From NCBI GenBank assembly GCA_045805065.1, contig JBJMMA010000153.1, positions 1 through 30,776 on the forward strand: a stretch of DNA of 30,776 bases, written 5' to 3'. The notes beneath the pieces were generated by a model, which saw only the letters and a list, made by a program, of their open reading frames with translations, did not search any database and was not told the DNA's origin. Positions 7,447 through 15,106 of the stretch are shown here, in pieces. This DNA comes from Bdellovibrionia bacterium (GTDB lineage: Bacteria > Bdellovibrionota > UBA1018). The translations under genes and the position numbers were made by a program. Within the stretch, counting starts at the first letter, position 1; each line of letters starts with the position of its first letter.

Positions 7447-8646
7447 TCAGGCCGCCTCCCGTTGCGGATCAAATGCGACGCGTACGCAGCCCTCTTTCTT
7501 TTCCTTAAAAAGTGAATAGCCGTGAGGACCTTCTTCCAGACTCATCGTATGAGTCAGGATATAGCTGGGGTCGAGCTTTCCCTGGCGGACTAGATCGATG
7601 AGAGTGGGGATGTACTTCTGAGCATATGCGCCAGAGGCCTTGAGGGTCAGTGATTTATGCATCAGGACGCCAAATGGGAATTTGTCGGCGAGACCGTAAA
7701 CACCGACAACCGAAAGGCGCCCCCCCTTTGCACAGCAGTGAATCGCCTGACGAAGAGCTTGGGCGCGATCTGTTTCCATTCGAAGCGCTTGCTTGACTCG
7801 GTCGTAGGCGTAACTGATGCCAGTGCCATGACCTTCCATCCCAACGGCGTCAATGCATGCATCTGGCCCGCGACCGCCGGTCATCTCCAACAGAGCTCCT
7901 GGAATATCGACTTGCTCATAATTCAGAGTCTCAGCATGACCATAGTCGCGTGCCATCTGCAGACGCTCGGGTACGCGGTCGATCGCAATGACTCTTTCTG
8001 CTCCCAGAAGATTTGCGCTTTGAATGGCCATTTGGCCAACTCCTCCACATCCCCAAACAACTACGGTGTCTCCTGGACGGATATCGCACAGTGATGCACC
8101 GGTGTAGCCTGTCGGTGCGGCGTCGGTCAGAAGTACTGCTTGCTCGTCACTGATCTCGTCAGGAAGAACAAAGGCTCCGTGGTCAGCAAACGGAACGCGG
8201 ATGTATTCTGCATGGCTTCCGGTAAATCCTCCTAACGCATACGTGTAACCATAAACTCCGCCGACCTCTTGCCCGAGCACTTTTTCTTGGAAGGCCTGAG
8301 GGGCATTAGGTACATCGGCAGGGTTCGCATTGTCGCAAAGTGGCCATTGATCGTGCTGGCAAAAATAGCAGCCTCCGCACCCAATGATTGCGGCCACGGC
8401 AACCCGATCGCCCTTCTTCAACTTACGAACGTCCTTTCCGATTTCCACGACTTCACCAATGAACTCATGACCGAGAATCTCGCCATGCCGCACTGTAGGA
8501 ATAAGGCCATCAATGATGTGAAGGTCAGATCCGCAAGCCGACGACAACTTGACTCGAATGATGGCGTCTCGAGGATCTCTTATTTGAGGATCAGGTACGT
8601 TTTCGACCTTAAGCTTATTGATGCCTTCCCAGCAGAGCGCTTTCAT
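7447..8646 (-). CDS. Zinc-dependent alcohol dehydrogenase (formaldehyde dehydrogenase-like, YbdR-type)
   Basis: CGSDLH and GHEF catalytic Zn motifs, CGGCYFC..C structural Zn site, VWGCGGVG NAD-binding motif, GRGPDACIDAVGME. Confidence 0.92.
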   Translation of the reverse strand: MKALCWEGINKLKVENVPDPQIRDPRDAIIRVKLSSACGSDLHIIDGLIPTVRHGEILGHEFIGEVVEIGKDVRKLKKGDRVAVAAIIGCGGCYFCQHDQWPLCDNANPADVPNAPQAFQEKVLGQEVGGVYGYTYALGGFTGSHAEYIRVPFADHGAFVLPDEISDEQAVLLTDAAPTGYTGASLCDIRPGDTVVVWGCGGVGQMAIQSANLLGAERVIAIDRVPERLQMARDYGHAETLNYEQVDIPGALLEMTGGRGPDACIDAVGMEGHGTGISYAYDRVKQALRMETDRAQALRQAIHCCAKGGRLSVVGVYGLADKFPFGVLMHKSLTLKASGAYAQKYIPTLIDLVRQGKLDPSYILTHTMSLEEGPHGYSLFKEKKEGCVRVAFDPQREAA

Positions 8647-8665: not shown

Positions 8666-9184
8666 TCAGGTTATATAGGCTTTCCTCTTTCCTGCAGAAG
8701 CTGGGCCTTTGGACTCGTGGCGGACGAGCTTTTTGGAAGCCGTGGGTGAGGCGATTCTCTTCTCAAAATCCGGATAGCTGTTTGTAACTTTATCTGTCTT
8801 GGCTTTGAACCACTTCTTAGCAAGGAGAAGGACCATTTCACGATGGCAGCGCTGACCGACTCGGCAGCTGCAGATGAAATAGACGTCTTTCTTTTTGCTC
8901 ATTTCTGAGAAGTGCTTGAGGAGTTCGTAGCCTTTCTCGCTAATCGTGAATCGCTTATCATAGTGAACGCGCTCAAACGCGCCATCATGATCATCGTACT
9001 TGCGCTTGGCCGAAAGCCAGTCCTCATGGAGCTTGGGTTCCGGTGACATCTCGGGCGTGTATTCATCACGATAAGAGCGATTCACAAATCGAGGATACCT
9101 TCGCATCGTGATGACGATGTAGGTATTTCTGCCGCGAGATACGCGATCCATGATCAAGTCAGAGACTGAGGCTTGTTTCAGCAT
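8666..9184 (-). CDS. DUF488-like (YeaO-related) protein
   Basis: MRRYPRFV...EMSPEPKL and C-terminal YFICSCRVGQRCHREMV (C-x7-CHR) pattern, followed by a basic tail. Confidence 0.65.
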   Translation of the reverse strand: MLKQASVSDLIMDRVSRGRNTYIVITMRRYPRFVNRSYRDEYTPEMSPEPKLHEDWLSAKRKYDDHDGAFERVHYDKRFTISEKGYELLKHFSEMSKKKDVYFICSCRVGQRCHREMVLLLAKKWFKAKTDKVTNSYPDFEKRIASPTASKKLVRHESKGPASAGKRKAYIT

Positions 9185-9224
9185 AGTGGGCTCCTGGGCC
9201 GGACTTACCTGAATTGAGATTCAA

Positions 9225-9842
9225 CTAAGCGGCTCGTTTGGTTTTGCTCTTAGTTACAAGTCGAATAGGACCAGACCCGGTAGTCTGTCTCACTGGTCTT
9301 TTAGTGGGTTGAGTGGCGGGGCGAGAAGCTGAACGCTTTTCTGTGCCTGACGTCATCTCAGTGTACTTTTCAGCAAGCTCATCGCGTTTAGGTTTATAGA
9401 CCGCATTGAAAAAGCGCTGTTGGTTCTGAAGATCTCTGTCATCTGACTCTTCGATGATGTGACGCGCTTCTTTCCAAGCTTGGTTCCATTGATCGCCAAA
9501 GCGAGCTTTGATCTGGCGATCGAATTCGTAAGGAGTCTGCACTTCTCCTCCCATTTGAAAACGGAGCTTTCCACCAGGGCCACTCGCAGCAAGGTTTCCT
9601 CTTTCACCGCCTAATACGTAGAACTGATCAGGTCGGATGCGTTTTCTTTCTTCGGCTTCAGCCTCCCCGCCAGGAGATAAGTATTGAGCTCTTTTTTTTC
9701 TGAACCCGTGTCTTGCGGCAGCGTAGAAGATGGCGCGATTCAAGCCCCAGCTTTTTGCTTCGTCAACTCTTAGGCCCAGTCGCACAGCTCGTGCGGCTTG
9801 AAGAAGCGCCATGATCTGAAATCGTCTCACTCCTTGCGCCAT
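9225..9842 (-). CDS. Uncharacterised protein, paralog A (LQAARA..SWGLNRAIFY family), basic C-terminal tail
   Basis: 205-aa ORF overlapping the ligD end by 16 nt; colinear similarity to 12382..13023 supports it as coding. Confidence 0.85.
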   Translation of the reverse strand: MAQGVRRFQIMALLQAARAVRLGLRVDEAKSWGLNRAIFYAAARHGFRKKRAQYLSPGGEAEAEERKRIRPDQFYVLGGERGNLAASGPGGKLRFQMGGEVQTPYEFDRQIKARFGDQWNQAWKEARHIIEESDDRDLQNQQRFFNAVYKPKRDELAEKYTEMTSGTEKRSASRPATQPTKRPVRQTTGSGPIRLVTKSKTKRAA

Positions 9843-12289
9843 TTGTTTTCTCCATGTTCTAAAAGGTTTTTCATTGGATCCTGACGAAGTCGCCGTAATT
9901 TCCTTAAAACGGATTTCATGTCAAAGCGGGTAGGATTCAGGCGAGCCGTTAGATCTTCCCAGGCAAGCGGCATTGATACCGTTGCGTTAGGAACTCCGCG
10001 CAGTACAAAAGGTGGAACGAAATGATGACCTCTCGCGTTCTGCATGACATCGAGGTAGACCTTGCCTTCGCGTTTGTGTTTTGCTCTTTCCAGAGTTGAG
10101 ATCTCACCACACCTCTTTTCAAGTTCGGTGGCGATTTCCAACGCCCAATTTCTGGCATCATCATGGGTTCCTGTCTGGGTCCAGGATGTCAGGATATGGA
10201 GCCCGGACTTTCCAGAAGTCTTTAAGTAAGAGGGAATGCCTTGGTCGTTGAGCAGATCATGAAGCTCACGCGCCAGTGTGATGACATGCCGAAAGGGCGC
10301 ATCACCTGGATCAAGATCAAAGAGCACAAAATCAGGATGATCGAGATGATCGATCGTCGACGCCCAGATATGAAAAGTGAGCGCTCCTTGATTGACCAGA
10401 TAAAGAAGCGTGTCCAAATCGTTTACAAGGACATATCGGACAGGTTTTCCAGTTTCTGAAGACAGCTCTGCTCGAGGAATCCAGTCTGGATAATAGGCAG
10501 GCGTGTTCTTCTGCCAGAAGTGAGGAGAGTCTTCCGCTATGCCCTCAGGAAAACGCTCCAGAGTAACGGGTCTATTTTTCAGATAGGGAAGAAGGTAAGG
10601 CGAGATGGCGCGGTAGTACTCAAGGATGTCTCCCTTTGTGATGTCTTTCTCGGGAAACATGATTTTGTCAGGGTGAGTGAATGCAATCTCTCGATCTGGC
10701 TGAATGATCTTTTCTTTGGCTTTGATCAAAAGCCACTGAGGTTTTGATCCTACTTCACGAAGCGCCATTCGAACGAGAGCAAAATCTCCCTTGAGCCGTC
10801 TTCCATGAAGCTTGAAATGAATCTTCCCGCTCTCATAGGCACTTGCAAAGTTCTCGGGCCCATCAAAGGTTCCCTTGTCCCAAATCTCCACATCACCGCC
10901 GCCATACTGACCTTCGGGAATATGTCCTTCAAAACGCGCGTATTCGAGTGGATGATCCTCAACTTCAACGGCCAGGCGTCGGATCGATGGGTCAAGTGAG
11001 GGCTCTTTAGTGACCGCCCAGCTTTTCAGTACGCCCTCGGACTCCAGGCGAAAATCCCAATGCAGGCGCGTAGCGTGATGCTTTTGAATCACGAAAAGCG
11101 GTTTCTTGGGCTTTGCTTGTGGTGGCACTCTCGGATTCTTGCCAGAAGGTTCCTGCGTCTTGCTGAAGTCACGCATCTGTTGATACCGATTCAGCGCATC
11201 GAGTTCCTTTTTGGATAGATGTTTCGGAGTCTCTCGCCGAACCTCCTCAGGATTTTTATCCATTCTGAGGCCTTCAAATCGCGGGTGGCGGAGCATCCCA
11301 TGGTGAGTCCAGCTCCCAAATTCAACCTCGGCGACGAGCAGAGGCTCCACCCAATGAACGTCTGTTCCCATATCCGTATCCGGATCAGAGAGTGGCGCTC
11401 TCTGTCGGGTGATGCGATCCAGCCTGCTGCGAAGGTCCCTCAAAATCGTAGTGTCAAAGCCCGTGCCCACTTTTCCAGCGTAGATGAGTTTCTTTCCATC
11501 ATCCGAGTAATAGGCAACAAGAAGAGCACCCAGGCCCGGCCTGCTGCCTTTGGGGTCTGTGTATCCAATGATGACGAACTCCTGGCGATGAGTGCACTTG
11601 ATCTTCACCCAATCGCCGCCGCGACTTCCCACGTAGAGTCCATTTTTCCTCTTGGCGACGATCCCTTCGCCATGGGCCTTACAGGTTTTTGTGAAAAAGC
11701 TCTTTCCCTTCTCTTCATGGATTTCAGTCCTGCGAAGGCGTTGATCCCACTTTACGGCAGCGTTTAAGAGCAGCTTTCTTCTGAAAAGTGGAAGCTGAGT
11801 GACTTCAAAGCGATCCACGTAGAGAATGTCGAAGAAGTAGGCGAAAGCAGGATGTTGTTTAGCCCGTGCTTCGACCATTCCTGTATCTTCAATGTGGAGG
11901 CGTTGCTGGAGCTCTTTAAAGCTGGATTGGCCTTGCGAATCCAGACAGACGATCTCGCCGTCCAGAAGAGCAGGATACTTAAGAGACTTCTTAAGCGCCT
12001 GAACGATTTCTGGGAATTGAAGCTCCTGGCGATTGCCGTTGCGGCTGAACAGATAGACGTCTTCGCCGTCAAACTGACAGAGGATGCGCAGACCATCAAA
12101 CTTTGTTTCAAAGATCCATTCCGGATCATCAAAGGGCTCCTCCACGGCAGTGCAAAGCATCAGTCCTGTGGAATCAGGCATCGGTACTGGATCCATCTCT
12201 CGAGCCAAATCTTCGATCGGATTCGGTGAGCTATGCGAATCAGGAGACTCTGATTTGACGATTCGAAGTGGGCGTTTTCGGGAAGGCAT
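9827..12289 (-). CDS. ligD: Multifunctional NHEJ DNA ligase D, domain order LIG-PE-POL
   Basis: Ligase motif I ETKFDG (Lys codon 12101-12103), EGIVAKR, WVKIK and OB domain LRHPRFEGLR; then phosphoesterase FVIQKHHATRLHWDFRLE...VEDHPLEY; then AEP polymerase THPDK...RFPEG...FDLDPG...SGKSGLH...YLDVMQN. ATG 12289 preferred. Confidence 0.95.
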   Translation of the reverse strand: MPSRKRPLRIVKSESPDSHSSPNPIEDLAREMDPVPMPDSTGLMLCTAVEEPFDDPEWIFETKFDGLRILCQFDGEDVYLFSRNGNRQELQFPEIVQALKKSLKYPALLDGEIVCLDSQGQSSFKELQQRLHIEDTGMVEARAKQHPAFAYFFDILYVDRFEVTQLPLFRRKLLLNAAVKWDQRLRRTEIHEEKGKSFFTKTCKAHGEGIVAKRKNGLYVGSRGGDWVKIKCTHRQEFVIIGYTDPKGSRPGLGALLVAYYSDDGKKLIYAGKVGTGFDTTILRDLRSRLDRITRQRAPLSDPDTDMGTDVHWVEPLLVAEVEFGSWTHHGMLRHPRFEGLRMDKNPEEVRRETPKHLSKKELDALNRYQQMRDFSKTQEPSGKNPRVPPQAKPKKPLFVIQKHHATRLHWDFRLESEGVLKSWAVTKEPSLDPSIRRLAVEVEDHPLEYARFEGHIPEGQYGGGDVEIWDKGTFDGPENFASAYESGKIHFKLHGRRLKGDFALVRMALREVGSKPQWLLIKAKEKIIQPDREIAFTHPDKIMFPEKDITKGDILEYYRAISPYLLPYLKNRPVTLERFPEGIAEDSPHFWQKNTPAYYPDWIPRAELSSETGKPVRYVLVNDLDTLLYLVNQGALTFHIWASTIDHLDHPDFVLFDLDPGDAPFRHVITLARELHDLLNDQGIPSYLKTSGKSGLHILTSWTQTGTHDDARNWALEIATELEKRCGEISTLERAKHKREGKVYLDVMQNARGHHFVPPFVLRGVPNATVSMPLAWEDLTARLNPTRFDMKSVLRKLRRLRQDPMKNLLEHGENKWRKE

Positions 12290-12309
12290 AAGTTTGTCTT
12301 CTAATATGG

Positions 12310-12325
12310 AGCAAGGGCCGTTCCT
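12310..12325 (-). promoter_or_regulatory. Putative sigma54-type promoter for the ligD operon (AGGAACGGCCCTTGCT)
   Basis: GGAACG-N4-TTGC, close to the TGGCACG-N4-TTGC consensus, 21 nt upstream of ATG 12289. Confidence 0.55.
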
Positions 12326-12353
12326 CAAAGCCAGCGGCTATTGATCGATCCGC

Positions 12354-12369
12354 TGGATAACAACTTGCA
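12354..12369 (+). promoter_or_regulatory. Putative sigma54-type promoter for paralog B (TGGATAACAACTTGCA)
   Basis: TGG-N8-TTGCA, back-to-back with the ligD site. Confidence 0.45.
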
Positions 12370-12381
12370 ACAATGGAGCCT

Positions 12382-13023
12382 ATGATCAAGCTAGTGCATA
12401 GTCGGTCGCACGCACCGGTAAAAAAGAAATCCAGCTCGAAATCAAAGTCGAAAAAACCCCAGCTTAGATTGGTGCGTAATGAGCCTCCTAGGCCAACAAA
12501 GGATTTGGTCTCAGGTGTGAGTGAATTTTACGTCCACGCTGTTTTGCAGGCCGCACGAGCGCAAAGTCTGGGTCTTGATATGGATTCCGCGAAAAGCTGG
12601 GCACTCAATCGCGCCATTTTCTATGAAGCCGCAAAAAAAGGATACATTCACAGGGGCAGAAGAAAGGCGTCGCCAGGAAATTCGTCCTCGGGTAGCGCTC
12701 CAAAGAAGAGGCAGAACTTTGGTCAGCTCTATTCACTGGGCAACGAAAAAGCCTATGCCGTCGAGACACAGGATGGTGGTGTCAGGTTTGTCATTGGCGG
12801 GCAGGTGCAAAGTCCTGATGCTTTTGACAAGCAGATTCGCCGCCGCTTCAGAGATTGGAAATTGGTCTGGTCAGAGGCTATGGAGCTCATGGATCAAGCG
12901 GGCCCAGCAGTTCTAAAGTCCGCATCGAGATTCCATGCTCAGGTTTACAAGCGTTGGAGGGACTTGCTTCGAACGCGATGGCCGCAGGGAGAGAGTGCAA
13001 TCCAAGAGATTCGTGCAGCATAA
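12382..13023 (+). CDS. Uncharacterised protein, paralog B (LQAARA..SWALNRAIFY family), basic N-terminal tail
   Basis: Divergent from ligD and aligns along its length with 9225..9842. Start is ATG 12373 or 12382; GGAG precedes the latter. Confidence 0.85.
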   Translation: MIKLVHSRSHAPVKKKSSSKSKSKKPQLRLVRNEPPRPTKDLVSGVSEFYVHAVLQAARAQSLGLDMDSAKSWALNRAIFYEAAKKGYIHRGRRKASPGNSSSGSAPKKRQNFGQLYSLGNEKAYAVETQDGGVRFVIGGQVQSPDAFDKQIRRRFRDWKLVWSEAMELMDQAGPAVLKSASRFHAQVYKRWRDLLRTRWPQGESAIQEIRAA

Positions 13024-14713: not shown

Positions 14714-15106
14714 CTATTTGCGCCTCTCTTTGGTCCATCGGCTTCTCAGGACGGATTCCGCAGGCTGCTTTTTCACCCATCTGACAAATTTATTCATCTC
14801 CGGATGAGAGAGCAGCCTTTCAAAGGTGTGGTACTCCTTTTCCAGCTCTTTTTCAGTAAATACTGAGTGAATCTTCTGGTGACATGTCTTGTGAATCACA
14901 TACTTTTCGCGTCCGCCCAGCGACTTTGGCACCAGGTGATGCTCATTGAGTGATGGTCCAGGCATCACTTCCCGCCCGCACAAAGGACAAGCGTCGTCTT
15001 TCGGCCATTTCGCTGCAAGCTCGATACTTTTCTTAGGAGCTAAATCATCGGCCTTATCAGGATTTAGGGTCTTTTGTTTCGAGCGGCTTCTTCTGGTCCG
15101 AGTCAT
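14714..15106 (-). CDS. Small HNH endonuclease-like protein (YisB-type)
   Basis: CPLCGR...NEHHLVPKSLGG...HKTCHQKIH...FVRWVKK. Confidence 0.85.
   Translation of the reverse strand: MTRTRRSRSKQKTLNPDKADDLAPKKSIELAAKWPKDDACPLCGREVMPGPSLNEHHLVPKSLGGREKYVIHKTCHQKIHSVFTEKELEKEYHTFERLLSHPEMNKFVRWVKKQPAESVLRSRWTKERRK

Follow-up and report, generated by a model that had tools for sequence, protein, structure and literature searches.

This report concerns a ligD gene and the two small genes that flank it in a 30,776-nt contig of a Bdellovibrionia bacterium (assembly GCA_045805065.1, contig JBJMMA010000153.1), which is referred to below, at its full length, as the window. The comparative context supports the assignment of the products of both flanking genes, paralogs A and B, to a protein family that, judging from its gene neighborhoods and domain fusions, is a recurrent companion of ATP-dependent ligases and of archaeo-eukaryotic primase (AEP)-type enzymes. 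Since elsewhere members of this family accompany stripped-down ligases and repair polymerases, the family probably represents a new helper subunit, and we give about even chances to A and B being non-catalytic accessory or tethering subunits that act together with LigD. An earlier, sequence-only reading of the window had proposed that LigD, A, B, and the product of a DUF488 gene form an end-joining module without Ku.

A Widespread Protein Family without Annotation

Paralog A (9225..9842, minus strand; 205 aa) is composed of the family core and a basic C-terminal tail, and paralog B (12382..13023, plus strand; 213 aa) of a Lys/Ser-rich N-terminal tail and the same core. The alignment of the two along their length, noticed already in the sequence-only reading, comprises 68 identities over 170 residues (40%) with an E value of 2e-37, which is far beyond chance. 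The family profile, when searched against the genome of the window, matched A (1.3e-69), B (9.3e-59), and a third paralog, C (3.0e-54), encoded in contig C61 (6005-6520) with no repair gene nearby. Over about 160 aa A and B contain the core motifs LQAARA, AKSWGLNRAIFY, LGxE, F.IGG, and VYKP.RD, and in a 30-sequence alignment that includes both of them and spans archaea and bacteria they retain all 24 invariant columns, among them Q15, R18, S31, R36, E80, Y149, R153, and D154; conserved cysteines that could hold an Fe-S cluster are absent from this alignment. The start of B at 12382, in a frame open from 12373, is indicated by the MIKLVHSR[SA]H sequence found at or near the N-terminus of 11 of the 14 proteins with E <= 1e-40, in some of them after a short or over-called leader. 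Orthologs of A at 60-76% identity retain its start and its tail. The last residues of A, B, C, and most of their orthologs are [KRQ]AA, possibly a conserved C-terminal signal, for which a degron-like role is no more than a guess. One gene flanking C was considered as a possible ligase gene and rejected, its product being a secreted-looking low-complexity protein; the other, a UPF0047 (YjbQ-like) gene (L085:6504-7025), converges on C.

A and B are lineage-specific paralogs in a widespread, unannotated family of about 160 aa. Neither protein has a significant match in Pfam, NCBIfam, PADLOC, or PHROGs, and a Pfam scan at E <= 1 returned merely two sub-threshold matches to unrelated families, with no Ku, OB, PriCT, PriL, or helix-hairpin-helix (HhH) family among them. 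Two identities were considered and rejected: that of the ligase OB domain (PF04679), with no Pfam match and an hhalign probability of 0.37% between the family and LigD profiles, and that of an HhH element in the N-terminal hairpin (LGL....AKSW), a likeness that we had presumed from the look of the sequence and for which the same scan gave no HhH family. A word-indexed search (776 candidates) gave 297 homologs of A at E <= 0.001, and an exhaustive search of representatives gave 163 homologs of B at the same threshold. None of the 120 listed homologs of A has a precomputed Pfam domain, and the sole name among them is "hypothetical protein"; those with a named source come from Promethearchaeota, Thorarchaeota, Nitrososphaerales, and WOR-3, so the similar archaeal hypothetical proteins that the sequence-only reading had mentioned do exist. 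In contigs representing one genome per species, 274 stretches encode a relative of the family. The counts of genome loci given below refer to the best 80 of these, all derived from metagenome-assembled genomes (MAGs), of which 55 are archaeal and 25 bacterial by record title. The archaeal hosts include Asgard groups, Bathyarchaeia, Thermoplasmata, and Nitrososphaeria, and the bacterial ones WOR-3, Calescamantes, Calditrichota, Omnitrophota, Aerophobetes, Aminicenantes, and Acidobacteriota. A scan of viral contigs with the alignment of the fused form described below revealed no relative, and a phage origin is therefore not indicated. In the open-access literature searched, we found no account of the family, nor of two-part ligases lacking an OB domain.

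The AlphaFold2 (AF2) model of A (pLDDT 83, pTM 0.73) comprises an N-terminal helical hairpin, a variable disordered linker, four short strands, and long C-terminal helices. The fold comparison of the A monomer that the sequence-only reading had envisaged yielded no clear relative in the PDB: Foldseek gave 0 matches at E <= 0.001, and the wide search with VIA-align peaked at a Z of 4.4, with 0 chains reaching Z >= 5 and no PriCT, PriL, or PriX chain among the rows with Z >= 3, which does not by itself exclude families that are not listed there. Similarly, the search of BFVD gave 0 matches at E <= 0.001, the best E value of the family profile against PDB sequences was 0.62, with nothing significant for the profile of the fused form, and the best feature score in the ESM Atlas (0.81) was below the level of a lead.

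Ligase and AEP Partners of the Family

The neighbors of family genes were clustered without a prior hypothesis, annotated with Pfam, and then searched with a hidden Markov model (HMM) built from the matches. This led to the identification, in 17 of the 80 genome loci, of a nearby gene encoding an ATP-dependent ligase of about 190 aa that consists of a nucleotidyltransferase (NTase) domain only and is called a mini-ligase below. All 17 loci are among the 25 bacterial ones. A neighborhood survey of the kind that the sequence-only reading had called for thus found recurrent ligase genes next to the family in bacteria, but none in the 55 archaeal loci. In 13 loci the mini-ligase gene is located directly upstream of the family gene, on the same strand, and at most 121 nt away from it or overlapping it; the gap is 521 nt in one further locus, and in three the mini-ligase gene lies about 6 kb upstream. 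The mini-ligases retain motifs I (EPKxDGWR), III, IIIa, IV, and V and end directly after motif V, with no OB domain. Their cassettes with the partner gene occur in unrelated housekeeping contexts in Calescamantes, WOR-3, Calditrichota, Omnitrophota, Aerophobetes, Aminicenantes, and others, and this persistence of the cassette in varied surroundings across phyla speaks for a functional link between the two genes. Ku was looked for, and not found, in five genomes carrying the pair.

Some of these loci contain further repair-related genes. A gene for an MPG glycosylase overlaps the start of the mini-ligase gene in L053, a PolX fragment and a full ligase are encoded near the family gene in L051, and the ligase of L075 has a 256-aa N-terminal extension that aligns weakly to an AEP profile (hhalign probability 60%, E 9e-5). 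In an Aerophobetes MAG, a DUF72 gene directly precedes the mini-ligase and partner pair (L065:1-1825). Among stand-alone archaeal family genes, mostly in MAGs of Asgard type, a gene for a glycosylase of Fpg/Nei type recurs within a few kb, namely about 3 kb upstream in L001, L007, L021, L035, L036, and L056 and about 5.5 kb downstream in L027. As the host genomes are related to each other, this may reflect plain synteny.

The second type of association is a fusion. About 25 representative clusters consist of proteins of 400-500 aa in which the family domain is C-terminal, and the N-terminal part shows, in the alignment, DxD, sGxGxH, and PLSLHR-type motifs. Its predicted structure is that of an AEP (AF2 model, pLDDT 87), and Foldseek returned 52 PDB matches at E <= 0.001, with PriS, the LigD POL domain, and Prim-PolC at the top (E 4e-6 to 1e-4, probability 1.00); Pfam searches of 31 proteins gave a single, sub-threshold LigD_Prim-Pol match. 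In a metagenome scan, 581 stretches were found to encode a relative of the fused form, and in 79 of the best 80 of these loci the family domain ends an open reading frame (ORF) of about 470 aa. The fused genes have no conserved neighbor, the commonest cluster occurring in 9 of the 80 metagenome loci kept, and their contexts are archaeal housekeeping genes, such as those of AdoMet synthetase (PF01941) and TIP49; the assignment of the fused forms to archaea is based on these archaeal-type neighbors only. UPF0047 genes, one of which converges on paralog C, are among the commoner neighbors of the fused genes (7 of 79 metagenome loci, e.g., L105:9534-9956).

LigD of the Window and the Arrangement of Its Locus

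The ligD gene (9827..12289, minus strand) encodes 820 aa from the ATG at 12289, and a longer frame with a TTG start extends to 12328. Its product combines, in one protein and in this order, LIG (NTase and OB), 3'-phosphoesterase (PE), and POL (AEP) domains. According to Pfam, and with residues numbered in the 833-aa frame, these are PF01068 (NTase, 66-244, E 8.2e-32), PF04679 (OB, 263-358, E 1.8e-26), PF13298 (PE, 415-520, E 2.6e-42), and PF21686 (POL, 564-818, E 1.1e-79). The protein passes the NCBIfam equivalog TIGR02776 with 516.8 bits against a cut-off of 373.2, and it is the sole match in the genome to the mini-ligase NTase profile as well as the sole LigD POL match. Its OB domain holds the motif VI region (PF04679; PRFEGLRxDK in the LigD consensus). 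An N-terminal extension (12212..12289, minus strand) is kept in three close LigD orthologs and is missing from LigDs at about 50% identity.

The ORFs stand where the sequence-only reading had placed them. The 3' end of ligD and the start of A overlap by 16 nt, with a GGAG sequence 8-9 nt 5' of the ATG of A, and ligD and B are divergently oriented. The 92 nt between ligD and B (12290..12381) presumably contain a shared control region, and a promoter and terminator scan revealed nothing above shuffled expectation (2 consensus promoter sites vs. 4.8 expected). The sequencing runs listed comprise four DNA runs, all of one study, and none of RNA.

Basic Tails and a Motif Common to LigD, A, and B

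The tails pointed out in the sequence-only reading are genuine features of both proteins. The C-terminal tail of A (9225..9332, minus strand) comprises 35 aa with 9 K/R and 0 D/E, is predicted to be disordered (pLDDT 51-63), and ends in KRAA; its GPIRLVTK motif is kept in all 8 A orthologs inspected. The Lys/Ser-rich N-terminal tail of B (12382..12510, plus strand) is likewise conserved in orthologs. Among 97 family members with a complete core end, 20 have a C-terminal tail of at least 15 aa, and the net charge of 19 of these tails is +3 or more. Basic tails are therefore recurrent in the family, and not universal.

The pattern [ILM][RK][ILV][VI][KRTHS] has 4 matches in the 9,987 residues of the ORFs of the window, all of them in the tails of LigD, A, and B: RPLRIVK in the N-terminal extension of LigD, GPIRLVTK in the tail of A, and MIKLVHS and QLRLVRN in that of B. 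As the pattern was defined post hoc, this count shows only that its background is low. The tail motifs of all three proteins are conserved in orthologs and are absent from LigDs at about 50% identity. One idea would be docking through this common motif, whether of the three proteins on each other or on a hub, for instance the sliding clamp.

Predicted Complex of A with LigD

One complex prediction was made with the LIG (residues 1-362) and POL (532-820) parts of LigD and full-length A as separate chains, each with an alignment. The combination of LIG, POL, and A gave ipSAE values of 0.34, 0.35, and 0.44 (median 0.35), with 0.00 for the best of three controls, a result classed as weak support. 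Of 157 solved complexes, 116 reach the mark set for ipSAE, as do 2 of 215 mismatches, but scores of at most 0.60 came from just 18 of these solved complexes and from both mismatches that passed. Between the runs, at least 21% of contacts are in agreement, and the pLDDT of the partner is at least 66. When the LIG chain was replaced, the score fell to 0.00, which is compatible with a predicted interface of A that depends on LIG. The partnership with LigD that the sequence-only reading had suggested is favored by context (mini-ligases, AEP fusions, and other contigs), while the support from the direct test of the complex (0.35) is weak.

Ku, LigD, and the Family in Related Genomes

A Ku gene, missing from the window as the sequence-only reading had stated, has no candidate in the whole genome either (PF02735 search; 94.17% complete, 262 contigs). 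With this HMM, Ku was recovered from the relative G030 as well as from B. subtilis, which served as a control. Among 41 genomes of the order, the family occurs only in that of the window and in one genome of the same genus (G001), which encodes a paralog of C type only and no LigD POL domain, and whose DNA is too diverged for a comparison of synteny. Searches of the 41 genomes detected a LigD POL domain in 11, that of the window included, and Ku in one, G030. An in-frame TAG codon divides the G030 Ku gene (L097:8735-9712) into two ORFs; besides ligD, the gene adjoins one for a Zn-dependent dehydrogenase 41% identical to that encoded at 7447-8646 of the window.

The LIG-PE-POL order of domains in the LigD of the window differs from the PE-LIG-POL order in the LigDs of related genomes, to which it is 25-47% identical in segments only. 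Together with the absence of a LigD POL domain from G001, this suggests that the ligD locus is an accessory acquisition. In three of the Ku-less relatives (G025, G002, and G020), a ligD gene of the PE-LIG-POL type is followed by three genes (L093:6777-8011, L094:3654-4917, and L095:5614-7034) that form a second candidate module of a small partner and an OB-less ligase. The first of them encodes an uncharacterized protein of about 200 aa with a basic N-terminal tail (PFKTRKTKT...), which was considered as a member of the A/B family and rejected (hhalign probability 0.14%); the second, an NTase-only ligase-like protein of about 200 aa (KIHGHR active-site region, EGLVFK); and the third, a DUF72 protein. 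The combination of LigD with a small uncharacterized protein, with or without an OB-less ligase, is thus a recurring theme in the order.

Orthologs of A, B, and LigD at 60-82% identity fall on contigs of identical nucleotide size, five in all: LigD, A, and B on 412,802 nt; A and B on 57,539 nt; LigD and B on 5,768 nt and on 158,540 nt; and LigD and A on 3,620 nt. From these equal sizes, and thus indirectly, we infer that the A-LigD-B arrangement is conserved on other contigs. A quick tree built from 58 hand-chosen rows places A, B, C, and their orthologs in one group (SH-aLRT 90), apart from the well-supported bacterial clade linked to mini-ligases (SH-aLRT 100) and from the fused forms (99).

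Other Genes of the Window

Downstream of A by 40 nt, on the same strand and with an AGGAG sequence 7 nt 5' of its ATG, is the DUF488 gene (8666..9184, minus strand). Its product matches the DUF488-N3a family PF22751 (49.2 bits, cut-off 27) and PF04343 (23.5 bits, cut-off 22.2), in both cases above the gathering threshold. The gene is probably co-transcribed with ligD and A. Its place in the module, as proposed in the sequence-only reading, is uncertain and gains no support from the comparative data: tblastn detected no DUF488 gene in any of the 80 genome loci of the family. The open-access literature searched gives no function for DUF488. The genes around the module are ordinary ones, encoding TetR regulators, a Zn-dependent dehydrogenase, a luciferase-like monooxygenase, and a hydrolase. 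A small ORF 1.7 kb beyond B (14714-15106, minus strand) encodes an HNH-type nuclease-like protein with a basic N-terminal tail, whose match to PF14279 is sub-threshold (22.7 bits vs. a cut-off of 27.5).

Discussion

LigD-type repair is understood as a two-component system of Ku and LigD, and LigD without Ku is known from surveys and has remained unexplained. The locus described here offers a concrete candidate for a partner of such a LigD, one that is very conserved, unannotated, and of no recognizable fold. In the mechanism that we favor, in which A and B are accessory subunits, LigD, A, and probably the DUF488 protein would be encoded on one transcript, with A translationally coupled to LigD and B expressed from the promoter that faces the other way. 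Docking on LigD, most likely on its ligase (NTase) module, may occur through the conserved helical core that A and B share, and their Lys/Arg-rich disordered tails would hold the enzyme on DNA at the break, so that A and B could give LigD the DNA-tethering help that Ku supplies in classical systems. The arrangement of the genes, their paralogy, the membership in the family, its repeated linkage to ligases and AEPs, and the lack of a detectable Ku are observations, whereas physical binding of LigD, binding of DNA by the tails, and stimulation of sealing are inferred, as is the type of break served (nick or gap vs. double-strand end).

Several observations weigh against this mechanism. Paralog C is flanked by genes unrelated to repair, those of the secreted-looking protein and of UPF0047. 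All 55 archaeal stand-alone loci lack a mini-ligase or AEP neighbor, and in five archaeal genomes searched no mini-ligase was found, the ligase matches there lying in frames of 319-685 aa and scoring 41-56 bits vs. about 300 for true mini-ligases. The many invariant polar residues of the family are easier to reconcile with a specific ligand site than with a simple tether. The need of LigD for a helper is less obvious, as the LigD of the window has an OB domain of its own, unlike the mini-ligases. The complex prediction falls in a band of scores that is more often wrong than right unless the prior is strong, and the placement of A, B, and LigD orthologs on the same contigs was deduced from contig sizes and not seen directly. 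Of the 11 genomes of the order with LigD, 10 have no detectable Ku, and nine of those ten also lack the family. A Ku-less LigD thus persists without the family and does not depend on it, and the recurrence of varied small partners near LigD in the order weakens the case for this family specifically replacing Ku.

A stronger claim would be that A and B are a true analogue of Ku, which as a homo- or heterodimer would bind double-strand ends, recruit LigD, and bridge the ends. We consider this unlikely, despite a complete three-domain LigD with no Ku in a 94%-complete genome, two diverged paralogs flanking ligD in an arrangement that appears conserved on other contigs, and a docking-like motif common to the tails of LigD, A, and B. 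In the accessible part of one survey, 90% of the "LigD only" genomes lack POL and PE (PMC7719229), and a full LigD without Ku is on that account the less common case; the basic tails of A and B also have counterparts in many bacterial Ku proteins, according to the part of PMC8656161 available to us. However, A and B have neither sequence similarity to Ku nor a clear fold match, other Ku-less relatives with LigD lack the family, and most genomes contain a single family copy, so a heterodimer cannot be its general mode. The usual partners, an NTase-only ligase or a lone AEP, at times beside base-excision genes (as in L053 and L051), point rather to the repair of nicks or gaps. The same partners could indicate a catalytic helper, whose core would bind a nucleotide or a 5'-phosphate/5' end and complete the nucleotidyltransferase active site in trans, by analogy with the OB/motif VI domain of ligases, the C-domain of Rnl2-type RNA ligases, or PriX, PriCT, and the PriL C-terminal domain (PriL-CTD). 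The family does accompany ligases that have no OB domain and hence no motif VI, the position C-terminal to an AEP is that of PriCT-1/2 and PriL-like domains elsewhere (PMC5862659, in its accessible part), and the 24 invariant columns, with the polar residues named above, suggest a defined site. We nevertheless regard a catalytic role as quite unlikely: in the window, LigD brings along an OB domain of its own, motif VI region included, no PriCT, PriL, or OB match was obtained in Pfam, and the hhalign probability against the LigD profile was the very low value given above. No such domain appears among the VIA-align rows shown either, which carries little weight at a best Z of 4.4. The likeness to Rnl2 and PriX is itself tentative.

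At the other extreme, A and B may have no partnership with LigD in this genome and play some other general role, e.g., that of nucleoid-associated or stress proteins, with their adjacency to ligD being due to co-regulation or a chance island. This would agree with the lack of a ligase or AEP neighbor at C and at 55 of 55 archaeal loci, and with the absence of the family from 39 of the 41 genomes of the order, although 10 of the 40 relatives carry LigD. It is very unlikely in our view, given the 16-nt overlap with ligD, the A-LigD-B arrangement apparently conserved on other contigs, the recurrent adjacency to mini-ligases in many phyla together with the AEP fusion, and a complex score that, though weak, is above all controls. 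In the most far-reaching reading, ATP-dependent ligases and AEPs of archaea, including Asgard groups, and bacteria would universally use the family as a break-site cofactor, and A, B, and LigD would form a Ku-independent end-joining machine held via the [IL]-[RK]-L-V tail motif to each other or to a hub such as the sliding clamp; this we put forward as an improbable proposal.

Through three independent architectures, the family is associated with the ligase NTase and with the AEP polymerase, both of them catalytic modules combined in LigD. Should it indeed be a helper subunit, it would represent a new class of ligase and polymerase cofactor, explain how the OB-less mini-ligases can work, and give hundreds of proteins of uncultured archaea and bacteria, so far hypothetical, a function. 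The mini-ligase pair might then also be of practical use as a compact two-part ligase.

Comparison with Known Systems

The system of Ku and LigD in non-homologous end joining (NHEJ) resembles the locus of the window in the complete LIG-PE-POL LigD and in small products of neighboring genes with basic low-complexity tails; within the order, the sole Ku of the 41 genomes (G030) is also encoded next to LigD. The differences are that A and B have no Ku domain and are predicted to consist of helices and four short strands, and that the other partners of their family are NTase-only ligases and lone AEP domains, which Ku is not known to accompany. The functional likeness to XRCC4 and XLF, small non-catalytic cofactors of eukaryotic ligase IV that bind the ligase and DNA and promote end joining, is not paralleled by any similarity of sequence or fold in our searches.

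Mycobacterial LigC, which has an OB domain, offers a further parallel. With Prim-PolC it forms a set of an ATP-dependent ligase and an AEP that acts with base-excision enzymes on nicks and short gaps, as described in the accessible parts of PMC5663958 and PMC7442782. Some loci of the family similarly adjoin glycosylase or PolX genes, while the accounts in those parts of the two papers include no protein of the family. In other AEP families, helper domains of the PriCT-1/2 and PriL-like types follow the AEP domain (PMC5862659, accessible part), and the fused forms of about 470 aa also have a mostly helical domain C-terminal to the AEP. The A/B family differs from PriL-CTD, PriX, and PriCT in having no Pfam match and no Fe-S cysteines, and in pairing with ligases too.

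A further comparison is with the mini-ligase and partner pairs, in which the partner belongs to the same protein family as A and B. In the window, the enzyme is instead a full LigD with its own OB, PE, and POL domains, and the genome has two flanking paralogs and a third, unlinked one, all in a separate clade of the quick tree. What the window adds to these pairs is the link to a complete LigD, the duplication of the partner into flanking paralogs, and a tail motif common to all three proteins, as well as a view of variable small partners around Ku-less LigDs within one bacterial order.

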